A stretch of DNA of 64,000 nucleotides from positions 167,429-231,428 of the forward strand of contig JAHZIX010000008.1 in assembly GCA_022601195.1 (NCBI GenBank), in the 5' to 3' direction. A program made the position numbers and the translations under genes. Shown here in pieces: positions 2,113 to 64,000 of the stretch (its first letter is position 1; the number at the start of each line of letters is the position of its first letter). Origin of the DNA: Deltaproteobacteria bacterium (GTDB taxonomy: Bacteria > Acidobacteriota > Thermoanaerobaculia > Multivoradales > JAHZIX01). The notes beneath the pieces were generated by a model. The model ran no database searches, was not told the DNA's origin, and saw only the letters and a list, made by a program, of their open reading frames with translations.

Positions 2113-2658
2113 CTAGTGCAGCTCGCTCCGCAACCAGGCCCTGGCCATCTGCCACCGGCGTGAAACCGTAGCTGTCCCTAAACCCAGAAAATCGGCAATT
2201 TCCGGAATCGTTAGACCGCCGAAATAGCGGAGCTCGACAAACTGCGCCGCTTCAGGATCGAGGTCCGCGAGACGCTCGAGGGCTTGATCCAAAGCCAGAA
2301 AGTCGAGGTCTACGGCGGGCAGTTCCACTTCTTCGAGGGCCACCGTTTTGCAAGCGCTACCCCGCTTCAGAGTCGCCTTGTTCCGAAAACGATCAACCAG
2401 AATCTGACGCAAGATCTTCGCTGCTAGAGCAAAGAATTGGAGCCGATTTTCCCAGCGAAGGGAACCGTTTGCTTCCAACTTCAGATAGGCCTCGTTGACT
2501 AGCTCCGTTGGCTGAAAGGTGACGTTCTCCCGCAAGCGCAGTTGACGGTCAGCGATCCTGCGCAGCTCCGGGTAAATTCGCTCGAACAGCCGGTCCGCGG
2601 CCCCCGACTCACCCTCTTGCCACGCCTGCAGCAAGATCGTGATGTCCCTGGATTCCAC
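2113..2658 (-). CDS. ECF RNA polymerase sigma factor, TIGR02999-like (kinase-associated type); no adjacent kinase
   Basis: DITILLQAW, YPELRRIA, FQPTELVNEAYLKL, RQILVD, VELRYFGGLT, TVSRRW; GTG 2658 with GAGGA RBS preferred over the longer ORF. Confidence 0.92.
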   Translation of the reverse strand: MESRDITILLQAWQEGESGAADRLFERIYPELRRIADRQLRLRENVTFQPTELVNEAYLKLEANGSLRWENRLQFFALAAKILRQILVDRFRNKATLKRGSACKTVALEEVELPAVDLDFLALDQALERLADLDPEAAQFVELRYFGGLTIPEIADFLGLGTATVSRRWQMARAWLRSELH

Positions 2659-57185: not shown

Positions 57186-58595
57186 ATGATCTCGACCCTG
57201 CTCTGGATGAGCCTGGCCTTTAGTCAGGCACCTACCACCTTTGATACTCACTTCACCGGCACCACCCTGAGATTCGACTACTTCCACAGTGGCACCGCTG
57301 GAGAAGAGCACATCAGCTTGGATCGCTTGCGTCAGGAAGGAGACTGGCCAGGCTCCAGGACTCGGATGATCGACGACACCCAATTGGGCAAATACCTCTT
57401 CGAGGTCCTCGATGCCGACAGCGGAACCCTGCTCTACTCTCGCGGTTTCGCGAGCATCTACGGAGAATGGGAGACAACCGGCGAGGCTCGAGGCGGAAGT
57501 TGGCGAACCTTTCATGAATCTCAGCGATTCCCGGAGCCCCGCAAACCCGTCCGATTGGTCCTCAAGAAGCGCGATGCCGAAGGGGGCTTCGTTGAGTTCT
57601 TCTCCACATCGATGGATCCCAACGACCGCGGCATCGATCGCTCGGCTCTCACCACCGCCGGTACGCCCTGGACCGTCTTCGAAACCGGCCCGCCGGCAAA
57701 GCGGGTCGATCTACTCATTCTCGGCGACGGCTATGGCAGCGGTGAACAGGAGACCTTTCACCAGCGGGTAAAACATCTCACAGCTCAGCTCTTCGCTTCC
57801 GAACCATTCAAGAGTCACCGAGGAGACTTCAACGTCCGTGCGGTGGATGTCGTTTCCCAGGATTCTGGCATCACCGATCCCAGGACGAAGACTTGGCACC
57901 AGACTGCCCTTGGCCTCAGCTATGACGCCTTTGGCTCCGAGCGCTATGTCCTCACCGAGCAGAATCGGGCGATTCGGGAGGTAGCGGCTCTAGCCCCCTA
58001 CGATGCGCTGATTCTTCTGGCCAACAACGAGAAGTACGGTGGAGGAGGAATCTTCAACCTGTGGACCACGGCAGCAGCTGGTAGCGGCCAAGCCGACTAC
58101 TTGGTGGTGCACGAATTTGGTCATTCTTTTGCCGGGCTCGCCGATGAGTACTACACCTCTCCGGTCTCCTATGAGGACTTCAATGCTCCTGGCGTCGAGC
58201 CCTGGGAACCCAATATTACGGCCCTTCTCGACCCGAAGGCCGTCAAGTGGGGAGACCTGGTCCCGTCAGAGACGCCACTGCCAACCCCTTGGAGCCAAGC
58301 GGAGTACGACGTGATCTCACGAGCTTTTCAGGCCGAGCGACAAGAGTTGCGATCCTCCGGAGCCTCGGAAGAACGAATGAATCGCTACTTCGCCGAGGTG
58401 AAGAAGCGCACCGAACCCTTGCTGGCTGGAGAAAAGTACGCTCCGAATGTGGGCGCTTTCGAGGGAGCCGGTTACCAAGCCAAAGGGCTCTACCGGTCGT
58501 CGGTCGACTGCATCATGTTCACTCGCAATCCCGAGCACTTCTGCCCGGTTTGTTCTCGAGCCATCGAGAAAGTGATCGCTCTCTATACGGAATAG
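57186..58595 (+). CDS. M64-family (IgA peptidase-like) metallopeptidase
   Basis: LRFDYFHSG, LGDGY, KYGGGGIFN, HEFGHSFAGLADEY, EPNIT, CIM, FCPVC. Confidence 0.92.
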   Translation: MISTLLWMSLAFSQAPTTFDTHFTGTTLRFDYFHSGTAGEEHISLDRLRQEGDWPGSRTRMIDDTQLGKYLFEVLDADSGTLLYSRGFASIYGEWETTGEARGGSWRTFHESQRFPEPRKPVRLVLKKRDAEGGFVEFFSTSMDPNDRGIDRSALTTAGTPWTVFETGPPAKRVDLLILGDGYGSGEQETFHQRVKHLTAQLFASEPFKSHRGDFNVRAVDVVSQDSGITDPRTKTWHQTALGLSYDAFGSERYVLTEQNRAIREVAALAPYDALILLANNEKYGGGGIFNLWTTAAAGSGQADYLVVHEFGHSFAGLADEYYTSPVSYEDFNAPGVEPWEPNITALLDPKAVKWGDLVPSETPLPTPWSQAEYDVISRAFQAERQELRSSGASEERMNRYFAEVKKRTEPLLAGEKYAPNVGAFEGAGYQAKGLYRSSVDCIMFTRNPEHFCPVCSRAIEKVIALYTE

Positions 58596-58629: not shown

Positions 58630-58661
58630 TGAGCCCTATTCTTCCTTTCCTACGCGTTACC
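58630..58661 (+). promoter_or_regulatory. putative ECF promoter TGAGCC-N17-CGCGTTACC
   Basis: TGAGCCCTattcttcctttcctaCGCGTTACC; both boxes and their spacing are identical to the copy at 63266-63297. Confidence 0.75.
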
Positions 58662-58732
58662 TTCCGGGGCTCTCGGCGGTGGGCTCTTCCGACCACGAAA
58701 AACCGCCTTATCCAAAAGAGGGAGGATTCACG

Positions 58733-59620
58733 ATGTTCTATGCAATGAGCTGTCCTAGGTCGATGCTGGGAGCCTTAGTGGTTCTTATCGCTTGCCTTTT
58801 CAGCGTGGCTGCTCGGGGTCAATCAGATTTCGATCCCGGGTCCGTAGTGTTGACCACCAGTCAGGAGTTCCCGACTTTTCTGACTTTCGACCAACTCAAC
58901 CTGGACGGGGAGCTCTGCCCTACGAGCTTCGGCGGCCCGCTGGGGGCTGCGACCGGGGAGTCCCTAGCCCCTACCGATCCGGAAGCGATCCGGGTCTACC
59001 TCGATCTTCAGGATAAACCCCACGGAGGAGGAGATGATGGGCCCATTGCCAACATAGGCTCCCTGAGGCCAGATAGTGGTTCCGGCGGCGATACTTGTGG
59101 AAGTCCCAGGGAGCTGTTCAGCGACTTCCTCAAGTTGTGCCTGGTGAGCGTCGATACCATCACCACAGCTTGCGGCGAGTGGAAGCTCGAAGTGAGCCTG
59201 GACCCTCTTTTCCCTCAACCGGTCCAATTGTGGAATGTCACGAATACCGGGAATGGCGGCTTTTTTGTGACCGACGTCACCCTGGCTTTGATGCTGACCT
59301 TTACCCATACGATTGACAATAGGGTGATTATTCTTCGCCGGACCCTCGTGGTGCGCGGTGGCGGTGATTGGGCCCGGCAGGCAGGGCCAGGGGGGTTCGA
59401 AAGCCCCGGTAACTTTGAGATCGACACCGATTGCGATTGTTTCGGCGACCGAGAGGTGATGGGAACCACAAATTTCTTTCCCGGCTGGAGAGTTCCCGTC
59501 GGGCCGCCAGGGCTCATGGACACACAAGAGATCGAGCCGGCTCCGTTCTGCCTTACCAACTACGAGGGAGGAGGCCAGCTCTGCTTCGCGCCGGTCATGG
59601 CTCCTGAGGAGAAACGGTAA
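58733..59620 (+). CDS. hypothetical secreted protein (295 aa, 8 Cys in the mature part)
   Basis: GGAGG RBS before ATG 58733; signal peptide to ...SVAARG; 3' end overlaps the kinase 3' end by 26 bp. Confidence 0.8.
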   Translation: MFYAMSCPRSMLGALVVLIACLFSVAARGQSDFDPGSVVLTTSQEFPTFLTFDQLNLDGELCPTSFGGPLGAATGESLAPTDPEAIRVYLDLQDKPHGGGDDGPIANIGSLRPDSGSGGDTCGSPRELFSDFLKLCLVSVDTITTACGEWKLEVSLDPLFPQPVQLWNVTNTGNGGFFVTDVTLALMLTFTHTIDNRVIILRRTLVVRGGGDWARQAGPGGFESPGNFEIDTDCDCFGDREVMGTTNFFPGWRVPVGPPGLMDTQEIEPAPFCLTNYEGGGQLCFAPVMAPEEKR

Positions 59621-62567
59621 GAGGGGTACCCAACTCTTTTTCGAGCTCCAATAGAGCCTGTCGAGCTCGTTGAGTCGCCGGATGGGATTCGCCACGGGAC
59701 TCCAACAAGATCTGAGTGCTACCGACCAGGAGCGCCTGAGCCTCGGCCACCTGTCCAAGGCGGCCGAGGCCCAAGCCGAGGAGGCTCTCACTCTCCGCAA
59801 GCCGCCAATGTCCGGCAGGGAGTGCCTGCCGCCGAATAGCAACCGCCTCCCGGAGTAACCCAACCGCCTCTTCGGTTCGGCCTTGTTCGAGCAGCAACCG
59901 GGCCAGACCGGTTTGAGTGAAAGCCAAATCTGGATGGGATTCCGGCAAGGCGGACCGACGCACCGCCAGGGCTTTTCGGTACACGGCCTCCGCCTCCGGA
60001 AGCTTTTCCTGTTGCAACAACAGGGAACCCAGGTTGTTGAGGGAGAGGCCGACATCCGGATGATCCTCTCCCAAGGCGGACCGACGGATTTCCACAGCTC
60101 TGCGCTGGAGGGCTTCTGCCTCCACCAAATCGCCTTTGGCTTTGGCTACAAAGGCCAAGTTGTTGAGGCTCGACGCGACCGCCGGATGCTCCGGCCCGAG
60201 CGCCGTCTTTCGCATCGCCAGGGCTTGCCGATAGATTTCCTCTGACTCTGCCAAATCTCCCCGATGACGCACCACAGCAGCGAGGGTATCGAGGGTTGTA
60301 GCCGTATCCGGGTGGCTCTCCCCCAGAGCCTTTCGGCTGACCTCCAAGGCTTGGCGTAGTAGGGGTTCCGCCCGATCCAACTCCCCGCGGCGAAAATAGA
60401 GAGTGGCCACCGTGGTCAGAATGACGGCCACCCGGGGGTGCTCCTCCCCAAGAAGTCTCTCGTTGAGCTCCAAAGCGCGTAGCAGCACCGGTTCGGCAGC
60501 CTCATAGTCTCCACTCTGGTAGAGCAAAGTCCCCGCGTTGAGCTCGCCGGTGGCCACGTGGGGATGGTCCTCCCCGAGGGCCAAGCGTTGAATCATCAAG
60601 GCCTGCTGGACCAATTCGGCGGCTGCACTGTACTCCCCAAGGGAAGAACGCAACACCGCTAGGTTGTTGAGACTCGAGGCGACCTCCGGATGGTTCTTCC
60701 CCCACAGCCGTCGCTGAATCTCCAATCCCTCCTCTACCAAGAAGATCCCTTCTTCCACCTCACCACCAGCTCCCATGGCCATGCCCACCCCCACCAAACT
60801 CTTGGCAACAGCGGGATCCTCTCTTCCCAGTTGACCCTCGCGAATGCCCAAAGCTTCACGGTGCAATTGAGCCGCCCGCTCGAATTCTCCTTTGGCGTAC
60901 TCCAATTGAGCCAAATGGTCCAGACTCTCGGCCGCATCCAGGTGGCTAGCTCCGAGAGCGCCACTGCGAACTTCGAGAGCGCCCTCCAGGAGAGGAGCCG
61001 CCCGCTCGAAGAGACCCAATTTGCGGTAGATCTCCCCCACCGTGTCCATCATCACAGCACGGACCTGGGGCTCCGTACCCGTCTCTTGCTCGAGCTGGGA
61101 AGCGCCCCGATCTAGAATTTCCCGAGCCGTGATCCGCTCGCCCCGCGCCGTCTCCGGGTCCGAAATCTCGAACAAACCCAGGACAAAATCCAAGGCCTGT
61201 TGAGCTTTGGCTCGCTCCGTGTCCGCCCGGTCTCGCTCGCGACCGATCTCGAGTCTCTGCCAGGCCAAAGAGAGGACTAGGGCCGCCAACAACACCATGG
61301 CAAGAGAGAGCACCCTATTGCGCCGAATGAACTTACTGGCCCGGTAGGCGAAAGTGCTACGCCGGGCGACGACGGGCCGGCCTTCGAGATACCGGCGAAG
61401 GTCTTCCGAGAGCTGTTCGACACTGCCGTAACGACGGTCTGGCTCTGGGCTCAAGGCCTTGAGAACGATGTTGTCCAGATCTCCCTTGAGGAGGCGACTC
61501 AGTCGGTGGGGCTCTTCTCCCCGCAGCCGGCTGACCTGATTCGATTCCCTCGGCGCAGCTGGGTCGTTCTCTGACTGAGTGGCTTGCCCCGAGGTCGATT
61601 CGAAAGCAGCCCCCAAATCCCGGGTCACAATGCTGCTGGGCCGCTCCGGCGAGGATTCGCGCAAAGACCGAGCTTCCCCCGCCCCTAGCTGCTGGACAGG
61701 CTGATTGGGTAGGCGTCCGGTCAGTAGCTCGTAGAGCAAGACCCCCAGAGAATAAACATCGCTCCCCGTGGTCACCGGATCCCCGAGAATCTGCTCTGGG
61801 CTGGCGTAGCGAGGCGTCAAACGCCTCTGAGCGGTCACTGTTGGCTGGCCCGAGGGCGCAGACTCGTCCGCATCGAGGAGCTTGGCGATGCCAAAATCAA
61901 GCAGCTTCGGCTGGCCCTCCTCGGTGACGAGAATATTCGATGGCTTCAAGTCCCGATGAATTACCAAGTTGCGATGAGCAAACTGAACGGCGCCGCAAAC
62001 CACCCGGAACACCTCCAAGCGGCGCCGCACAGATAGCTGATGAATGTCGCAGTAGCGATCGAAGGGCAACCCTTCGATGTACTCCATCACGAAGTAAGGC
62101 TGGCCCTCCTTCGTCGTACCTCCATCCAAAAGGCGAGCGATATGGGGATGATCCAAACGGGCTAGGATGTCTCGTTCCTGGTGAAAGCGGCGCACGATCT
62201 CATCGGAGTCCATGCCCCTCTTGATCAGCTTCACGGCGACCACGTGCTGGAAGGCAGGGTCTTCACGGCTGGCGAGGAAGACGGCTCCCATGCCTCCTCG
62301 ACCGATCTCCCTGCCCACCCGATAGGGACCTATCTTGTGCAGACGGGCTTGGGAGGACGACAGCAGCGGGGCGAGGGATTCAGCAGCAGGAGATTCGAGA
62401 AAACCGCCAGCAGAGTCATAGGATTCGAGTAGAGACTCCACTTCCCTTCTCAGGGCTGGTTGCTCCCCACAACTCCGGTCGAGAAAATCGCTGCGTTGGG
62501 CCGGCGGCAGCTCCAGGGCTTCGGCAACGACCGCCTTGACCCGCTGCCAGCTCCCTTGACTCTCCAT
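59595..62567 (-). CDS. Hanks-type Ser/Thr protein kinase with TM and extracytoplasmic TPR repeats
   Basis: GRGGMG, VAVK, HRDLKPSN, DFG, TPRYASPEQ, DVYSLG; TM; ~42-aa repeats LGxxHPxVAxSLNNL. Confidence 0.95.
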   Translation of the reverse strand: MESQGSWQRVKAVVAEALELPPAQRSDFLDRSCGEQPALRREVESLLESYDSAGGFLESPAAESLAPLLSSSQARLHKIGPYRVGREIGRGGMGAVFLASREDPAFQHVVAVKLIKRGMDSDEIVRRFHQERDILARLDHPHIARLLDGGTTKEGQPYFVMEYIEGLPFDRYCDIHQLSVRRRLEVFRVVCGAVQFAHRNLVIHRDLKPSNILVTEEGQPKLLDFGIAKLLDADESAPSGQPTVTAQRRLTPRYASPEQILGDPVTTGSDVYSLGVLLYELLTGRLPNQPVQQLGAGEARSLRESSPERPSSIVTRDLGAAFESTSGQATQSENDPAAPRESNQVSRLRGEEPHRLSRLLKGDLDNIVLKALSPEPDRRYGSVEQLSEDLRRYLEGRPVVARRSTFAYRASKFIRRNRVLSLAMVLLAALVLSLAWQRLEIGRERDRADTERAKAQQALDFVLGLFEISDPETARGERITAREILDRGASQLEQETGTEPQVRAVMMDTVGEIYRKLGLFERAAPLLEGALEVRSGALGASHLDAAESLDHLAQLEYAKGEFERAAQLHREALGIREGQLGREDPAVAKSLVGVGMAMGAGGEVEEGIFLVEEGLEIQRRLWGKNHPEVASSLNNLAVLRSSLGEYSAAAELVQQALMIQRLALGEDHPHVATGELNAGTLLYQSGDYEAAEPVLLRALELNERLLGEEHPRVAVILTTVATLYFRRGELDRAEPLLRQALEVSRKALGESHPDTATTLDTLAAVVRHRGDLAESEEIYRQALAMRKTALGPEHPAVASSLNNLAFVAKAKGDLVEAEALQRRAVEIRRSALGEDHPDVGLSLNNLGSLLLQQEKLPEAEAVYRKALAVRRSALPESHPDLAFTQTGLARLLLEQGRTEEAVGLLREAVAIRRQALPAGHWRLAESESLLGLGLGRLGQVAEAQALLVGSTQILLESRGESHPATQRARQALLELEKELGTPLTVSPQEP

Positions 62568-62584
62568 CTTCGGCGCCCGAGGCC

Positions 62585-63151
62585 TCAGGCGCTGCCCATG
62601 CGGCGAAAGAGCCAGGCCTTGGCAACACTCCACTCTCTCTTCACTGTTGCCGGAGAAATGCTCATGACCTCCGCCGTCTCCACAACACTCAGTCCAGCGA
62701 AGAACCGTAACTCCACGACCCGAGTCTGCTGAGGATCGAGGGCTGTCAAATCGGTCAATGCTTGATCCAGCGCCAGCAGATCCACCGACGGCTCAGGCAC
62801 CGCGTCTCGCGCTTCGTCGAGGCTTAATTTCTGCACCTCACCACCGCGTTTGGAAGCACTCCTCTTGCGTGCATGATCGACCAGGATTCTCCGCATCATT
62901 TGGGCAGCGACACCAAAGAAATGGGCTCGATTCTGCCATCGCACTCTCTTCTGGTCGACCATCTTCAAATAGACCTCATTGACGAGAGCGGTCGCTTGCA
63001 AGGTATGCCCTCGCTTCTCACCAAAGAAGTAACCGGCAGCCAACCGGTGGAGCTCGTCATACACCAAGGGTAAGAGCTCTTCGAGAGCCTCTACGTTACC
63101 GGTGCTCCAGTCGAGAAGAAGACCTGTCACATTTTCTTGTTGATGATTCAT
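62585..63151 (-). CDS. ECF RNA polymerase sigma factor, TIGR02999-like
   Basis: VTGLLLDW, VYDELHRLA, HTLQATALVNEVYL, RRILVDHAR, VELRFFAGLS, TVKREW; directly upstream of the kinase. Confidence 0.95.
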   Translation of the reverse strand: MNHQQENVTGLLLDWSTGNVEALEELLPLVYDELHRLAAGYFFGEKRGHTLQATALVNEVYLKMVDQKRVRWQNRAHFFGVAAQMMRRILVDHARKRSASKRGGEVQKLSLDEARDAVPEPSVDLLALDQALTDLTALDPQQTRVVELRFFAGLSVVETAEVMSISPATVKREWSVAKAWLFRRMGSA

Positions 63152-63265
63152 AAAAAAATAGAAATTCCACCCAGACGATTTATTCCTCTTCGAGAATCCG
63201 GCCCGAGTAACTCCTACTCTATTCTACGGTCCACCGACTCCCAACGTTAAATAACCCACATTTTT

Positions 63266-63297
63266 TGAGCCCTTTTTCCAGATCTCTGCGCGTTACC
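63266..63297 (+). promoter_or_regulatory. putative ECF promoter TGAGCC-N17-CGCGTTACC
   Basis: TGAGCCCTttttccagatctctgCGCGTTACC, ~63 nt upstream of ATG 63361; second copy at 58630. Confidence 0.75.
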
Positions 63298-63360
63298 AAC
63301 CGTGGCTCGATAGGCGAGCCCAAAAATAAGGGCGATCATCTACCTTCATTGGGAGACAAA

Positions 63361-63915
63361 ATGAACAATCAGCAGGAAAAAACCAATCTAGCTCGCACGG
63401 GCTTTCTACTACTCCTAGGGCTGGCGTTATTAGTCCCCAGTGCCGCACAGGCATATATCAATTGCTATAGCTATGGCCCTGGAGGGATCCTTCTCGGCCC
63501 TTGTGAGAATGGATATAACGGCATCGTTCCGAGCTGCTCCGTCGTCGGCTACGCCAACGATCCGATAAGCCAAGGAAACACTCCTGACCTTCAAGCTCGT
63601 CTCATGGACCTGGGAAGCGGCGACTACGACGCCGTCACCATCACTCTTCCAGAAGGTTCCAATCGTGAAGCTTACCCGACCGGAGCCCCCACAAAGGGTA
63701 GCGCCAGTACTACCCTCCAGGCCCTTTTCCGTGCGGCTGACGAGGTCGGAGATGGCTTGAAAAAAGGAGAACACCCCTCCACCGATGGTGTTTTACTGGT
63801 TTTCGAACGGGGAATTCTCGACCAGTTCCCCGCCGGCGAACCGATTCCTATTGAAGAGCTGTTGGGTCTCGCTGACTCGGCCCGCTCGATTACCGGGTAC
63901 TACGCTCACCGGTAA
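63361..63915 (+). CDS. hypothetical secreted protein (184 aa) with a Cys/Gly/Tyr-rich mature N-terminus
   Basis: GGAG RBS before ATG 63361; signal peptide ...LLVPSAAQA; 3 Cys in the first 30 mature residues. Confidence 0.8.
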   Translation: MNNQQEKTNLARTGFLLLLGLALLVPSAAQAYINCYSYGPGGILLGPCENGYNGIVPSCSVVGYANDPISQGNTPDLQARLMDLGSGDYDAVTITLPEGSNREAYPTGAPTKGSASTTLQALFRAADEVGDGLKKGEHPSTDGVLLVFERGILDQFPAGEPIPIEELLGLADSARSITGYYAHR

Positions 63916-63927
63916 ATGCTTGTTTTA

Positions 63928-63984
63928 GGTCTCGTCTCTCACGCAAGGTCTACCCTCGCCGTGTAGGAGAGACGAGACCATTTT
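63928..63984 (+). terminator. intrinsic terminator
   Basis: 13-bp stem GGTCTCGTCTCTC / GAGAGACGAGACC followed by ATTTT, downstream of the stop at 63915. Confidence 0.7.
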
Positions 63985-64000
63985 CCCTGGCCCCTGACTG

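Follow-up and report, generated by a model that had tools for sequence, protein, structure and literature searches.

The module described here lies near the end of a 64,000-nucleotide (nt) stretch of DNA (assembly GCA_022601195.1, contig JAHZIX010000008.1, positions 167,429 to 231,428), which was analyzed as a whole and is called the window below. It consists of an operon for a sigma factor of the extracytoplasmic function (ECF) type and a Ser/Thr kinase, bracketed by two genes for exported proteins, A and B, each preceded by a copy of the same two-part, promoter-like motif. The sigma gene (62585-63151, minus strand) encodes an ECF43-like protein of 188 amino acids (aa), with matches to PF07638 (Sigma70_ECF; 4e-58, 196.8 bits against a cut-off of 21.1) and to TIGR02999 (219.7 bits against a cut-off of 126.15) instead of individual models for sigma-2 and sigma-4. 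In an alignment of 72 paralogues, the DAED of region 2.2 found in ordinary ECF sigmas is replaced by QATA (Q52-A55, with Thr54), and the recognition helix of sigma-4 reads SPATVKREW. In the ECF43 type, an uncharged motif whose third residue is Thr (consensus QTTA) takes the place of DAED, and QATA agrees with it. Three serines (Ser98, Ser100 and Ser110) are read from the translation of the linker. The gene at position +1, on the same strand and starting 17 nt after the sigma stop codon, encodes a Hanks-type Ser/Thr kinase of 990 aa (59595-62567, minus strand; Pkinase 1.5e-42, TPR_12 7.8e-94). It comprises an 81-aa N-terminal extension, a kinase domain at residues 82-289 with the GRGGMG, VAVK, HRDLKPSN, DFG and SPE motifs all present, one transmembrane helix corresponding to a single hydrophobic peak at ~419-437, and TPR repeats C-terminal of that peak, for which an extracytoplasmic topology is predicted. 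No gene lies between sigma and kinase, and the flanking genes have no Pfam or NCBIfam match; an unrecognized anti-sigma factor could have been missed by such family searches. Family membership, the QATA sequence and the neighboring kinase support the assignment of this sigma to the kinase-gated, ECF43-like type.

Gene A (58733-59620, plus strand) is monocistronic and converges on the kinase gene, with 3' ends that overlap by 26 nt; its product of 295 aa has a signal peptide and 10 cysteines. Gene B (63361-63915, plus strand), also monocistronic, is divergent from the sigma gene and encodes 184 aa with a signal peptide ending in AQA and three cysteines.

Two copies of a bipartite motif

Both copies of the motif are on the plus strand and have the form TGAGCCCT-N15-CGCGTTACC. 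In copy A (58630-58661), the -35-like box TGAGCCCT occupies 58630-58637 and the -10-like box CGCGTTACC 58653-58661; in copy B (63266-63297), the corresponding positions are 63266-63273 and 63289-63297. All 17 box positions and the 15-nt spacing are the same, the spacers are unlike, and outside the boxes the similarity amounts to about 10 nt. From the end of copy A to the ATG of gene A there are 71 nt, from the end of copy B to the ATG of gene B 63 nt, and a ribosome-binding site (GGGAGG or GGGAG) is present at each ATG. Copy B is divergent from the sigma gene, at 115 nt from the sigma start codon. When the window was searched for this pattern with up to three mismatches, copies A and B were the sole two matches; shuffled windows gave a mean of 0.16 matches, and only 2 of 100 shuffles reached two. 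A repeat search recovered both boxes independently, as families D4 and D10 with a common offset of 4636 nt. The -10-like box, CGCGTTA, holds the CGT(T) whose CGT is described as a hallmark of ECF -10 elements (PMC8103513). A gene for a secreted M64 peptidase (57186-58595, plus strand) stops 35 nt before copy A, and known RNA families gave no hit at gathering score between 58300 and 64000 (Rfam).

This arrangement had been described in a first-pass annotation made from the sequence alone, and both the sequence reading and the pattern search agree with it: two copies with identical boxes and spacing precede the genes that bracket the operon, the products are exported proteins with cysteines and without a recognizable family, and the sigma between them is of the kinase-gated type, with the threonine of QATALVNE being Thr54.

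On the minus strand, which is that of the sigma gene itself, the pattern search of the window gave no copy of the motif. Upstream of the operon there is a weak sigma-70-like promoter candidate (63221-63250, minus strand; TTAACG-18-TAGAAT), of a kind for which shuffles lead one to expect 1.6 sites where one was found.

The motif in the host genome

Both strands of the host genome (8,010,524 bases in 52 contigs, 59% G+C) were scanned. The full 17-position pattern occurs three times, and CGCGTTACC 18 times, in four cases with TGAGCC exactly 17 nt upstream. The first-pass annotation had put forward TGAGCC-N17-CGCGTTA as the pattern to look for genome-wide, and its distribution proved to be non-random. 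With the core written as TGAGCC-N-CGCGTTAC, spacing 17 gave 5 exact, 4 one-mismatch and 31 two-mismatch matches, whereas there were no exact or one-mismatch matches at spacing 16 or 18, and 31 and 33 two-mismatch matches, respectively. Two-mismatch matches are background, and the excess is confined to near-perfect copies at spacing 17. A weight matrix ranked seven sites at 30-37.7 bits, followed by two at 23.2 and 18.1 and a continuum at or below 17.7, the high scores of the seven being due to the matrix having been built from them.

Seven of the nine matches with at most one mismatch are intergenic and aimed at a downstream unit 8-328 nt away; the other two, on C43 and C51, are inside long open reading frames (ORFs) and were taken as chance. 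The units downstream of the seven sites are five genes for exported proteins, one sigma gene and one structured RNA without an ORF. Besides copies A and B, the sites are found on C15 (137523-137554, minus strand), before a gene for a 244-aa Cys-rich exported protein without family and 19.4 kb from the nearest sigma gene; on C47 (194293, plus strand), before a gene for a 1173-aa TPR-CHAT protein with a signal peptide, divergent from a paralogous sigma gene 205 nt off; on C19 (74419, plus strand), before a gene for a 695-aa lipoprotein-like TPR/BNR protein; on C28 (168508-168538, minus strand), with a paralogous sigma gene about 328 nt downstream on the same strand; and on C42 (52481-52512, minus strand), 30.6 kb from the nearest sigma gene, where a stem-forming stretch of ~100 nt follows instead of an ORF. 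Looser matching adds two copies around the paralogous C9 sigma gene, one before its start codon and one before a two-gene operon on the far side. The former (C9:142436-142463, plus strand) ends ~6 nt before the start codon, and would give a leaderless mRNA. The C28 and C9 copies each precede a paralogous sigma gene in its direction of transcription, which may mean either autoregulation or a sigma cascade.

The first-pass annotation had the window sigma transcribe exactly two proteins, A and B. Such a private two-gene regulon, to which the other copies would be irrelevant, has in its favor that A and B are the most alike of all copies, with 17 of 17 box positions in common, that they bracket the operon, and that ECFs targeting their neighboring gene alone have been published (ECF41, and ECF42 sven_0747/sven_4377, as entered in the Casas-Pastor 2021 supplement). 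What was found in the genome runs counter to it. The motif stands before about seven further units, at three sites by paralogous sigma genes of the same clade, and two copies that are distant from every sigma gene are close to A and B in sequence: C42 agrees at all 17 box positions, and C15 agrees at 16 of 17 and has the extended GCGCGTTACCAA in common with copy B. We consider the private regulon improbable. With about seven more motif-marked units in the genome, the output would be a dispersed regulon, which three or four paralogous sigma/kinase modules probably share or cross-read.

The C42 unit (C42:52339-52512, minus strand; locus L065:5355-5513) folds over ~100 nt as a long closing stem that ends in a T-run (-44.1 kcal/mol, z -2.72). 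It had no Rfam match at E<=1 besides a chance row for a small nucleolar RNA, and a DNA search did not find it in the same-genus genome G001. We regard it as a candidate small RNA under sigma control; its position is antisense-proximal to the gene for a secreted reprolysin/CBM96 protein, at the 3' end of that gene.

Sigma paralogues and their recognition helices

The host genome encodes 72 sigma factors of the kinase-linked ECF type, and in 63 of these the third residue of the DAED replacement is Thr or Ser. Their sigma-4 recognition helices come in 71 different nine-residue versions, which suggests that dozens of separate promoter specificities may exist. A TVKR[E/D]W-type helix is found in about nine of the 72. 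We also counted, with no prior assumption, all dyads of two 5-mers in the 470 nt upstream of all 72 sigma genes. TGAGC-N18-CGCGT and an overlapping neighbor were among the dyads with the top count of four regions, a count that is common to ~20 dyads and is not significant alone. The four regions belong to the window, C47, C28 and C9 sigmas, and these fall into one six-member clade of the 72 (FastTree, Shimodaira-Hasegawa-like support 86). Judged from these sequences, the motif goes with one sigma clade, and not with the whole family.

The presence of the motif beside paralogues raises the possibility that the promoter is a shared one, read mainly by one or more of the other sigmas (C47, C28, C9 or others with a TVKR[E/D]W-type helix), in which case A and B might be activated mainly by a sigma other than that of the window. 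The core motif is found 205 nt from the C47 sigma gene; it precedes the C28 sigma gene by ~328 nt and the C9 sigma gene directly, and the helix type itself is common to those nine or so paralogues. In contrast, the paralogue-linked copies differ from copies A and B at the flanking positions (TCGCGTTAC/TTTC versus G/ACGCGTTACC); other genomes, described below, also bear on this.

The window encodes a second sigma of the same family (2113-2658, minus strand; G000 C31:169541-170086), which belongs to another clade of the paralogue tree and has no copy of the motif nearby.

Conservation of the motif in other genomes

In G001, a genome of the same genus, four exact core sites were found. On one contig the order is that of the window, with the motif, an orthologue of A (47% aa identity), the kinase (54%) and the sigma (72%). 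On another contig the motif is upstream of a partial, frameshifted orthologue of B, with no sigma gene found in the 8 kb on the side that corresponds to the sigma in the window. The two remaining sites (C158 and C491) are upstream of genes for a secreted M36 peptidase and for a 640-aa protein with a signal peptide, both away from the operon, which again is at odds with a regulon restricted to A and B. When the regions upstream of A and of B were aligned pairwise between the window and G001, the two boxes were the longest conserved blocks, and spacers and flanks had diverged. The M36 enzyme is a fungalysin-type peptidase (L047:874-3825, minus strand, motif upstream).

Two 10-Mb genomes from another family of the same order contain 8 and 6 copies with at most one mismatch, all but one of which have the form TGAGCC-N17-CGCGTTTC, and some of which adjoin sigma/kinase pairs. 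The control with reversed boxes gave 3 and 6, so that the first genome alone stands out. In these two genomes a copy of the motif also follows closely on the 3' end of a sigma gene and faces back into it (L052 7931-7959, minus strand; L058 5266-5294, plus strand), where it would be an antisense promoter. Genes of the A family in more distant genomes have the motif, with at most one mismatch, at 2 of 11 loci (L004 and L007), so that across the order gene A and the motif are not generally linked. L007 (G038:C32, 1104-2756), likewise from a different family within the order, has three elements in a row on a single strand: a motif copy with one mismatch, a gene of the A family (285 aa) and a gene for an ECF43-like sigma, the stop and start codons overlapping.

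A broader view was obtained from the best 80 of 573 confirmed relatives of the sigma (54-67% identity), whose loci together span 757 kb and are labelled mostly as Acidobacteriota (Pyrinomonadaceae, Bryobacteraceae, Thermoanaerobaculia and others). Exact TGAGCC-N17-CGCGTT occurs seven times in these 757 kb, and spacings of 14, 15, 16, 18, 19 and 20, as well as reversed boxes, gave none. In the 350 nt upstream of the sigma start (three of the 80 loci have less), a site with at most two mismatches and spacing 17 is present on the divergent strand in 44 of 80 loci, compared with 0-5 for other spacings, 3 of 80 on the sense strand, and 0 divergent and 1 sense for the reversed control. At one mismatch or less, the divergent count is 17 of 80, compared with 0-1 for other spacings and 1 on the sense strand. 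The 44 loci share the position and orientation of copy B, divergent and upstream of the sigma gene. The scarcity of sense-strand sites, together with the lack of a copy on the window sigma's own strand, fits a sigma that is controlled after translation rather than by autoregulation.

Within the 44 sites, C, G, C, G and T of the -10-like box are held in 42-44 cases, at positions that were used in the selection. Agreement extends to positions outside the selection: T is found at +8 in 36 and at +9 in 37, T, T and G precede CGCGT in 26, 29 and 26, respectively, and A follows GTT in 31. The divergent genes vary from genome to genome; 32 of 38 have no Pfam family, and many begin with a signal peptide. 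In a subclade with TGGCCC or TGACCC (L093, L096, L099, L108, L119, L122, L124, L126, L135, L144 and L145), the divergent gene encodes a protein of 74-201 aa (74-110 aa in 9 of the 11) without a signal peptide or Pfam family, which has a conserved, zinc-ribbon-like Cys/His pattern, FGCWH ... C..CG. At three related loci (L072 1155-1183, L073 1516-1544 and L115 836-864, all plus strand), a copy with one mismatch, TGAGCC-N17-CGCGTA, directly follows the sigma stop codon on the sigma gene's strand, and would drive the next gene.

The spacing-specific counts in the host genome and in the 80 loci led us to reject chance and a mobile repeat as explanations of the motif. A related idea is that the motif is not a promoter at all, and instead serves some DNA-binding regulator as its operator or belongs to a small repeated element, with which the missing AAC of the -35-like box would agree. 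An operator or repeat of this sort would have to account for a strict 17-nt spacing around a spacer whose sequence is free to vary, for a constant orientation toward the downstream gene at distances of 8-328 nt, for a sequence that is not palindromic, for the lack of similarity past the boxes save the ~10 nt between A and B, and for the association with sigma genes, in one orientation, in 44 of 80 loci. We regard it as very improbable.

The same loci bear on the possibility, raised above, that paralogues are the main readers of copies A and B. The motif directly adjoins an orthologous or related sigma gene in 44 of 80 loci elsewhere, which makes the nearest sigma the most economical reader, and in G001 the orthologue of A keeps both the motif and its place beside the 72%-identical sigma. 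A promoter that serves mainly the paralogous sigmas is thus an unlikely account, although it seems less so than a private regulon of A and B.

We also compared, over the 80 loci, the variant of the -35-like box with the residue in the recognition helix. TGAG accompanied D or E in 19 loci, TGAT accompanied Q in 8, and 13 loci combined H with TGGC or TGAC; there were 5 exceptions. The helix and box pairs in these loci are KR[E/D]W with TGAGCC, KRQW with TGATCC, KRHW with TGGCCC or TGACCC, and ERDW with TGAGGG.

A proposed promoter for kinase-gated sigma factors

From the motif statistics, the gene architecture, and the conservation of motif, position and orientation, we infer promoter function and the pairing of sigma and site: in our judgment, a subfamily of kinase-gated, ECF43-like (TIGR02999) sigmas quite likely uses TGAGCC-N17-CGCGTTA as its promoter, and the window would then contain one complete module. 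The part of the first-pass annotation that made the motif a promoter of this sigma is supported at the level of the subfamily, through the genome counts, the conserved boxes in the congener and the 44 of 80 loci, and the part that made it a private or 'mini' regulon is not.

Several observations weigh against this interpretation. The -35-like box, TGAGCC, lacks the usual AAC of ECF promoters, with TGATCC and TGGCCC in related loci, and the distance from GCC to CGT is ~19 nt compared with the classic 16-17. At two mismatches or less, 36 of the 80 related loci have no divergent motif. Three paralogous sigma genes (C47, C28 and C9) have the core motif nearby, and adjacency alone therefore does not tell which sigma uses A and B. 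The clade that unites them is smaller in one tree than in the other: with IQ-TREE, run on the 72 sigmas and six outside sequences, 14 rows make up the smallest clade that contains the sigmas of the window, C47 and C28, with C9 inside, and the deep nodes of that tree are weak. The covariation of helix and -35-like box was considered as independent proof and set aside, since the tree shows one independent pair and one change of residue class, which carries no statistical weight; the covariation agrees with a direct readout of the box by the helix without proving it. Among the sequencing runs that match the DNA of this metagenome-derived genome there is no RNA run, and the sole full match is to a DNA run, possibly that of the source sample. 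Finally, the T51A variant of EcfK from Xanthomonas citri is described as still functional (PMC13147305), so that the threonine of region 2.2 need not be the decisive phosphosite.

Every step past the domain architecture is conditional in the mechanism that we propose. The sigma-kinase operon would be expressed from a promoter of its own that is not of the ECF type, and the free sigma, which has QATA instead of the acidic DAED in region 2.2, would for that reason have low affinity for core RNA polymerase. A signal at the periplasmic TPR domain would cause the transmembrane kinase to phosphorylate the sigma, with Thr54 as a likely site and the linker serines as possible additional ones. Holoenzyme with phosphorylated sigma would then transcribe gene B from the divergent promoter B, and gene A from promoter A on the far side of the kinase gene. 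Further output units would be those marked by the motif elsewhere, that is, the 244-aa Cys-rich exported protein, the TPR-CHAT protein, the TPR/BNR lipoprotein, the two-gene operon, the ~100-nt structured RNA and two paralogous sigma genes.

More tentatively, the motif could be one entry of a readable promoter code that serves a large radiation of kinase-gated sigmas, in which kinase-to-sigma channels are insulated and partly hierarchical. If that were true, dozens of channels would each drive a few 'dark' exported proteins, at least one would drive a small RNA, and the wiring would be predictable from sequence.

The exported products

The family of protein A is small: a search of 1.84 billion sequences at E<=0.001 gave 37 representatives. 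Its AlphaFold model is all-beta, with a mean predicted local distance difference test score (pLDDT) of 83.1. The best matches with VIA-align are eight-stranded barrels, namely NspA (Z 9.4, root-mean-square deviation 3.4 Å over 142 residues), OmpA (9.0), DynF (8.8) and PagL (8.6), values that are barely above the stated background Z of 7-8; Foldseek of the model against PDB gave nothing at E<=0.001. With Z values so near background, the model points to no more than a fold class, an exported eight-stranded barrel-like protein with disulfides. For the orphan protein B, a word-based search returned one relative (59% identical); the protein had no usable match in the Atlas, where its model has a pLDDT of 0.42. 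The likely terminator of gene B (63928-63985, plus strand), read from the sequence, is a perfect hairpin of 13 bp, GGTCTCGTCTCTC ... GAGAGACGAGACC, followed by ATTTT. A scan for consensus terminators missed it because its loop is about 25 nt.

Comparison with known systems

To our knowledge, two kinase-activated ECF sigmas are known, both proteobacterial, and their target promoters and outputs are poorly defined; we know of no study of the large acidobacterial radiation of kinase-gated sigmas. The closest parallel to the window module is EcfK/PknS of Xanthomonas citri (ECF43), where the gene after that for a Sigma70_ECF sigma likewise encodes a Hanks kinase, which is extended by ~80 aa at its N-terminus and has a single transmembrane helix and periplasmic TPR repeats, and where an uncharged Q-x-T-x replaces DAED, as QATE in EcfK and QATA here (PMC13147305). 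A threonine in the linker of EcfK is said there to matter as well. The EcfK/PknS pair comes without a co-encoded anti-sigma factor; in the window module, family searches recognized none. The two differ in output and in setting: EcfK controls a type VI secretion system, and none adjoins the window module, which comes from a sponge-metagenome genome with 72 paralogues, has its closest sigma relatives in Acidobacteriota, and is known here from its sequence alone.

In EcfP/PknT of Vibrio parahaemolyticus (ECF43), the sigma is described as intrinsically inactive through the loss of DAED (STTA), and phosphorylation of the third-position Thr as restoring the charge needed for binding to beta-prime (PMC8999054). 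Thr54 aligns with this Thr of EcfP. The EcfP regulon confers polymyxin resistance, in contrast to the candidate targets here, which are unannotated exported proteins.

The window sigma and kinase fall under the definition of ECF43 given in part 13 of the Casas-Pastor 2021 supplement, which comprises a Sigma70_ECF domain, S/T where DAED would stand and, at +1, a kinase that has a single transmembrane helix and extracytoplasmic TPR repeats. The promoter predicted in that part, 'GTC in -35 and CAG in -10', was derived from Proteobacteria only. TGAGCC/CGCGTTA, located mostly on the strand divergent from the sigma gene, is a different consensus from a branch not covered there, and in the accessible portions of the literature on ECF43, EcfP/PknT, EcfK/PknS and the TIGR02999/PF07638 sigmas it was not found. 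Like classic ECF promoters (AAC / CGT, or GGAAC-N16-17-CGTT for EcfG; PMC8103513), the motif has two boxes at a fixed distance, the downstream one containing CGT(T). It differs from them in its -35-like GAGCC without AAC, in the ~19 nt from GCC to CGT, and in being mostly not autoregulatory, as judged from the sense-strand sites in 3 of 80 loci.

The locus leaves the known mechanism of kinase-gated ECFs unchanged. It supplies a promoter consensus, TGAGCC-N17-CGCGTTA, with a conserved target position at the divergently transcribed neighbor gene and a candidate regulon of unannotated exported proteins, and the natural variants of helix and -35-like box are candidates for orthogonal sigma/promoter pairs. 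The comparisons above thus give good support, from sequence features, to a module that belongs to a known kind of kinase-gated ECF system, and in which the promoter consensus and the target position appear to be new, for a branch that is mostly acidobacterial.

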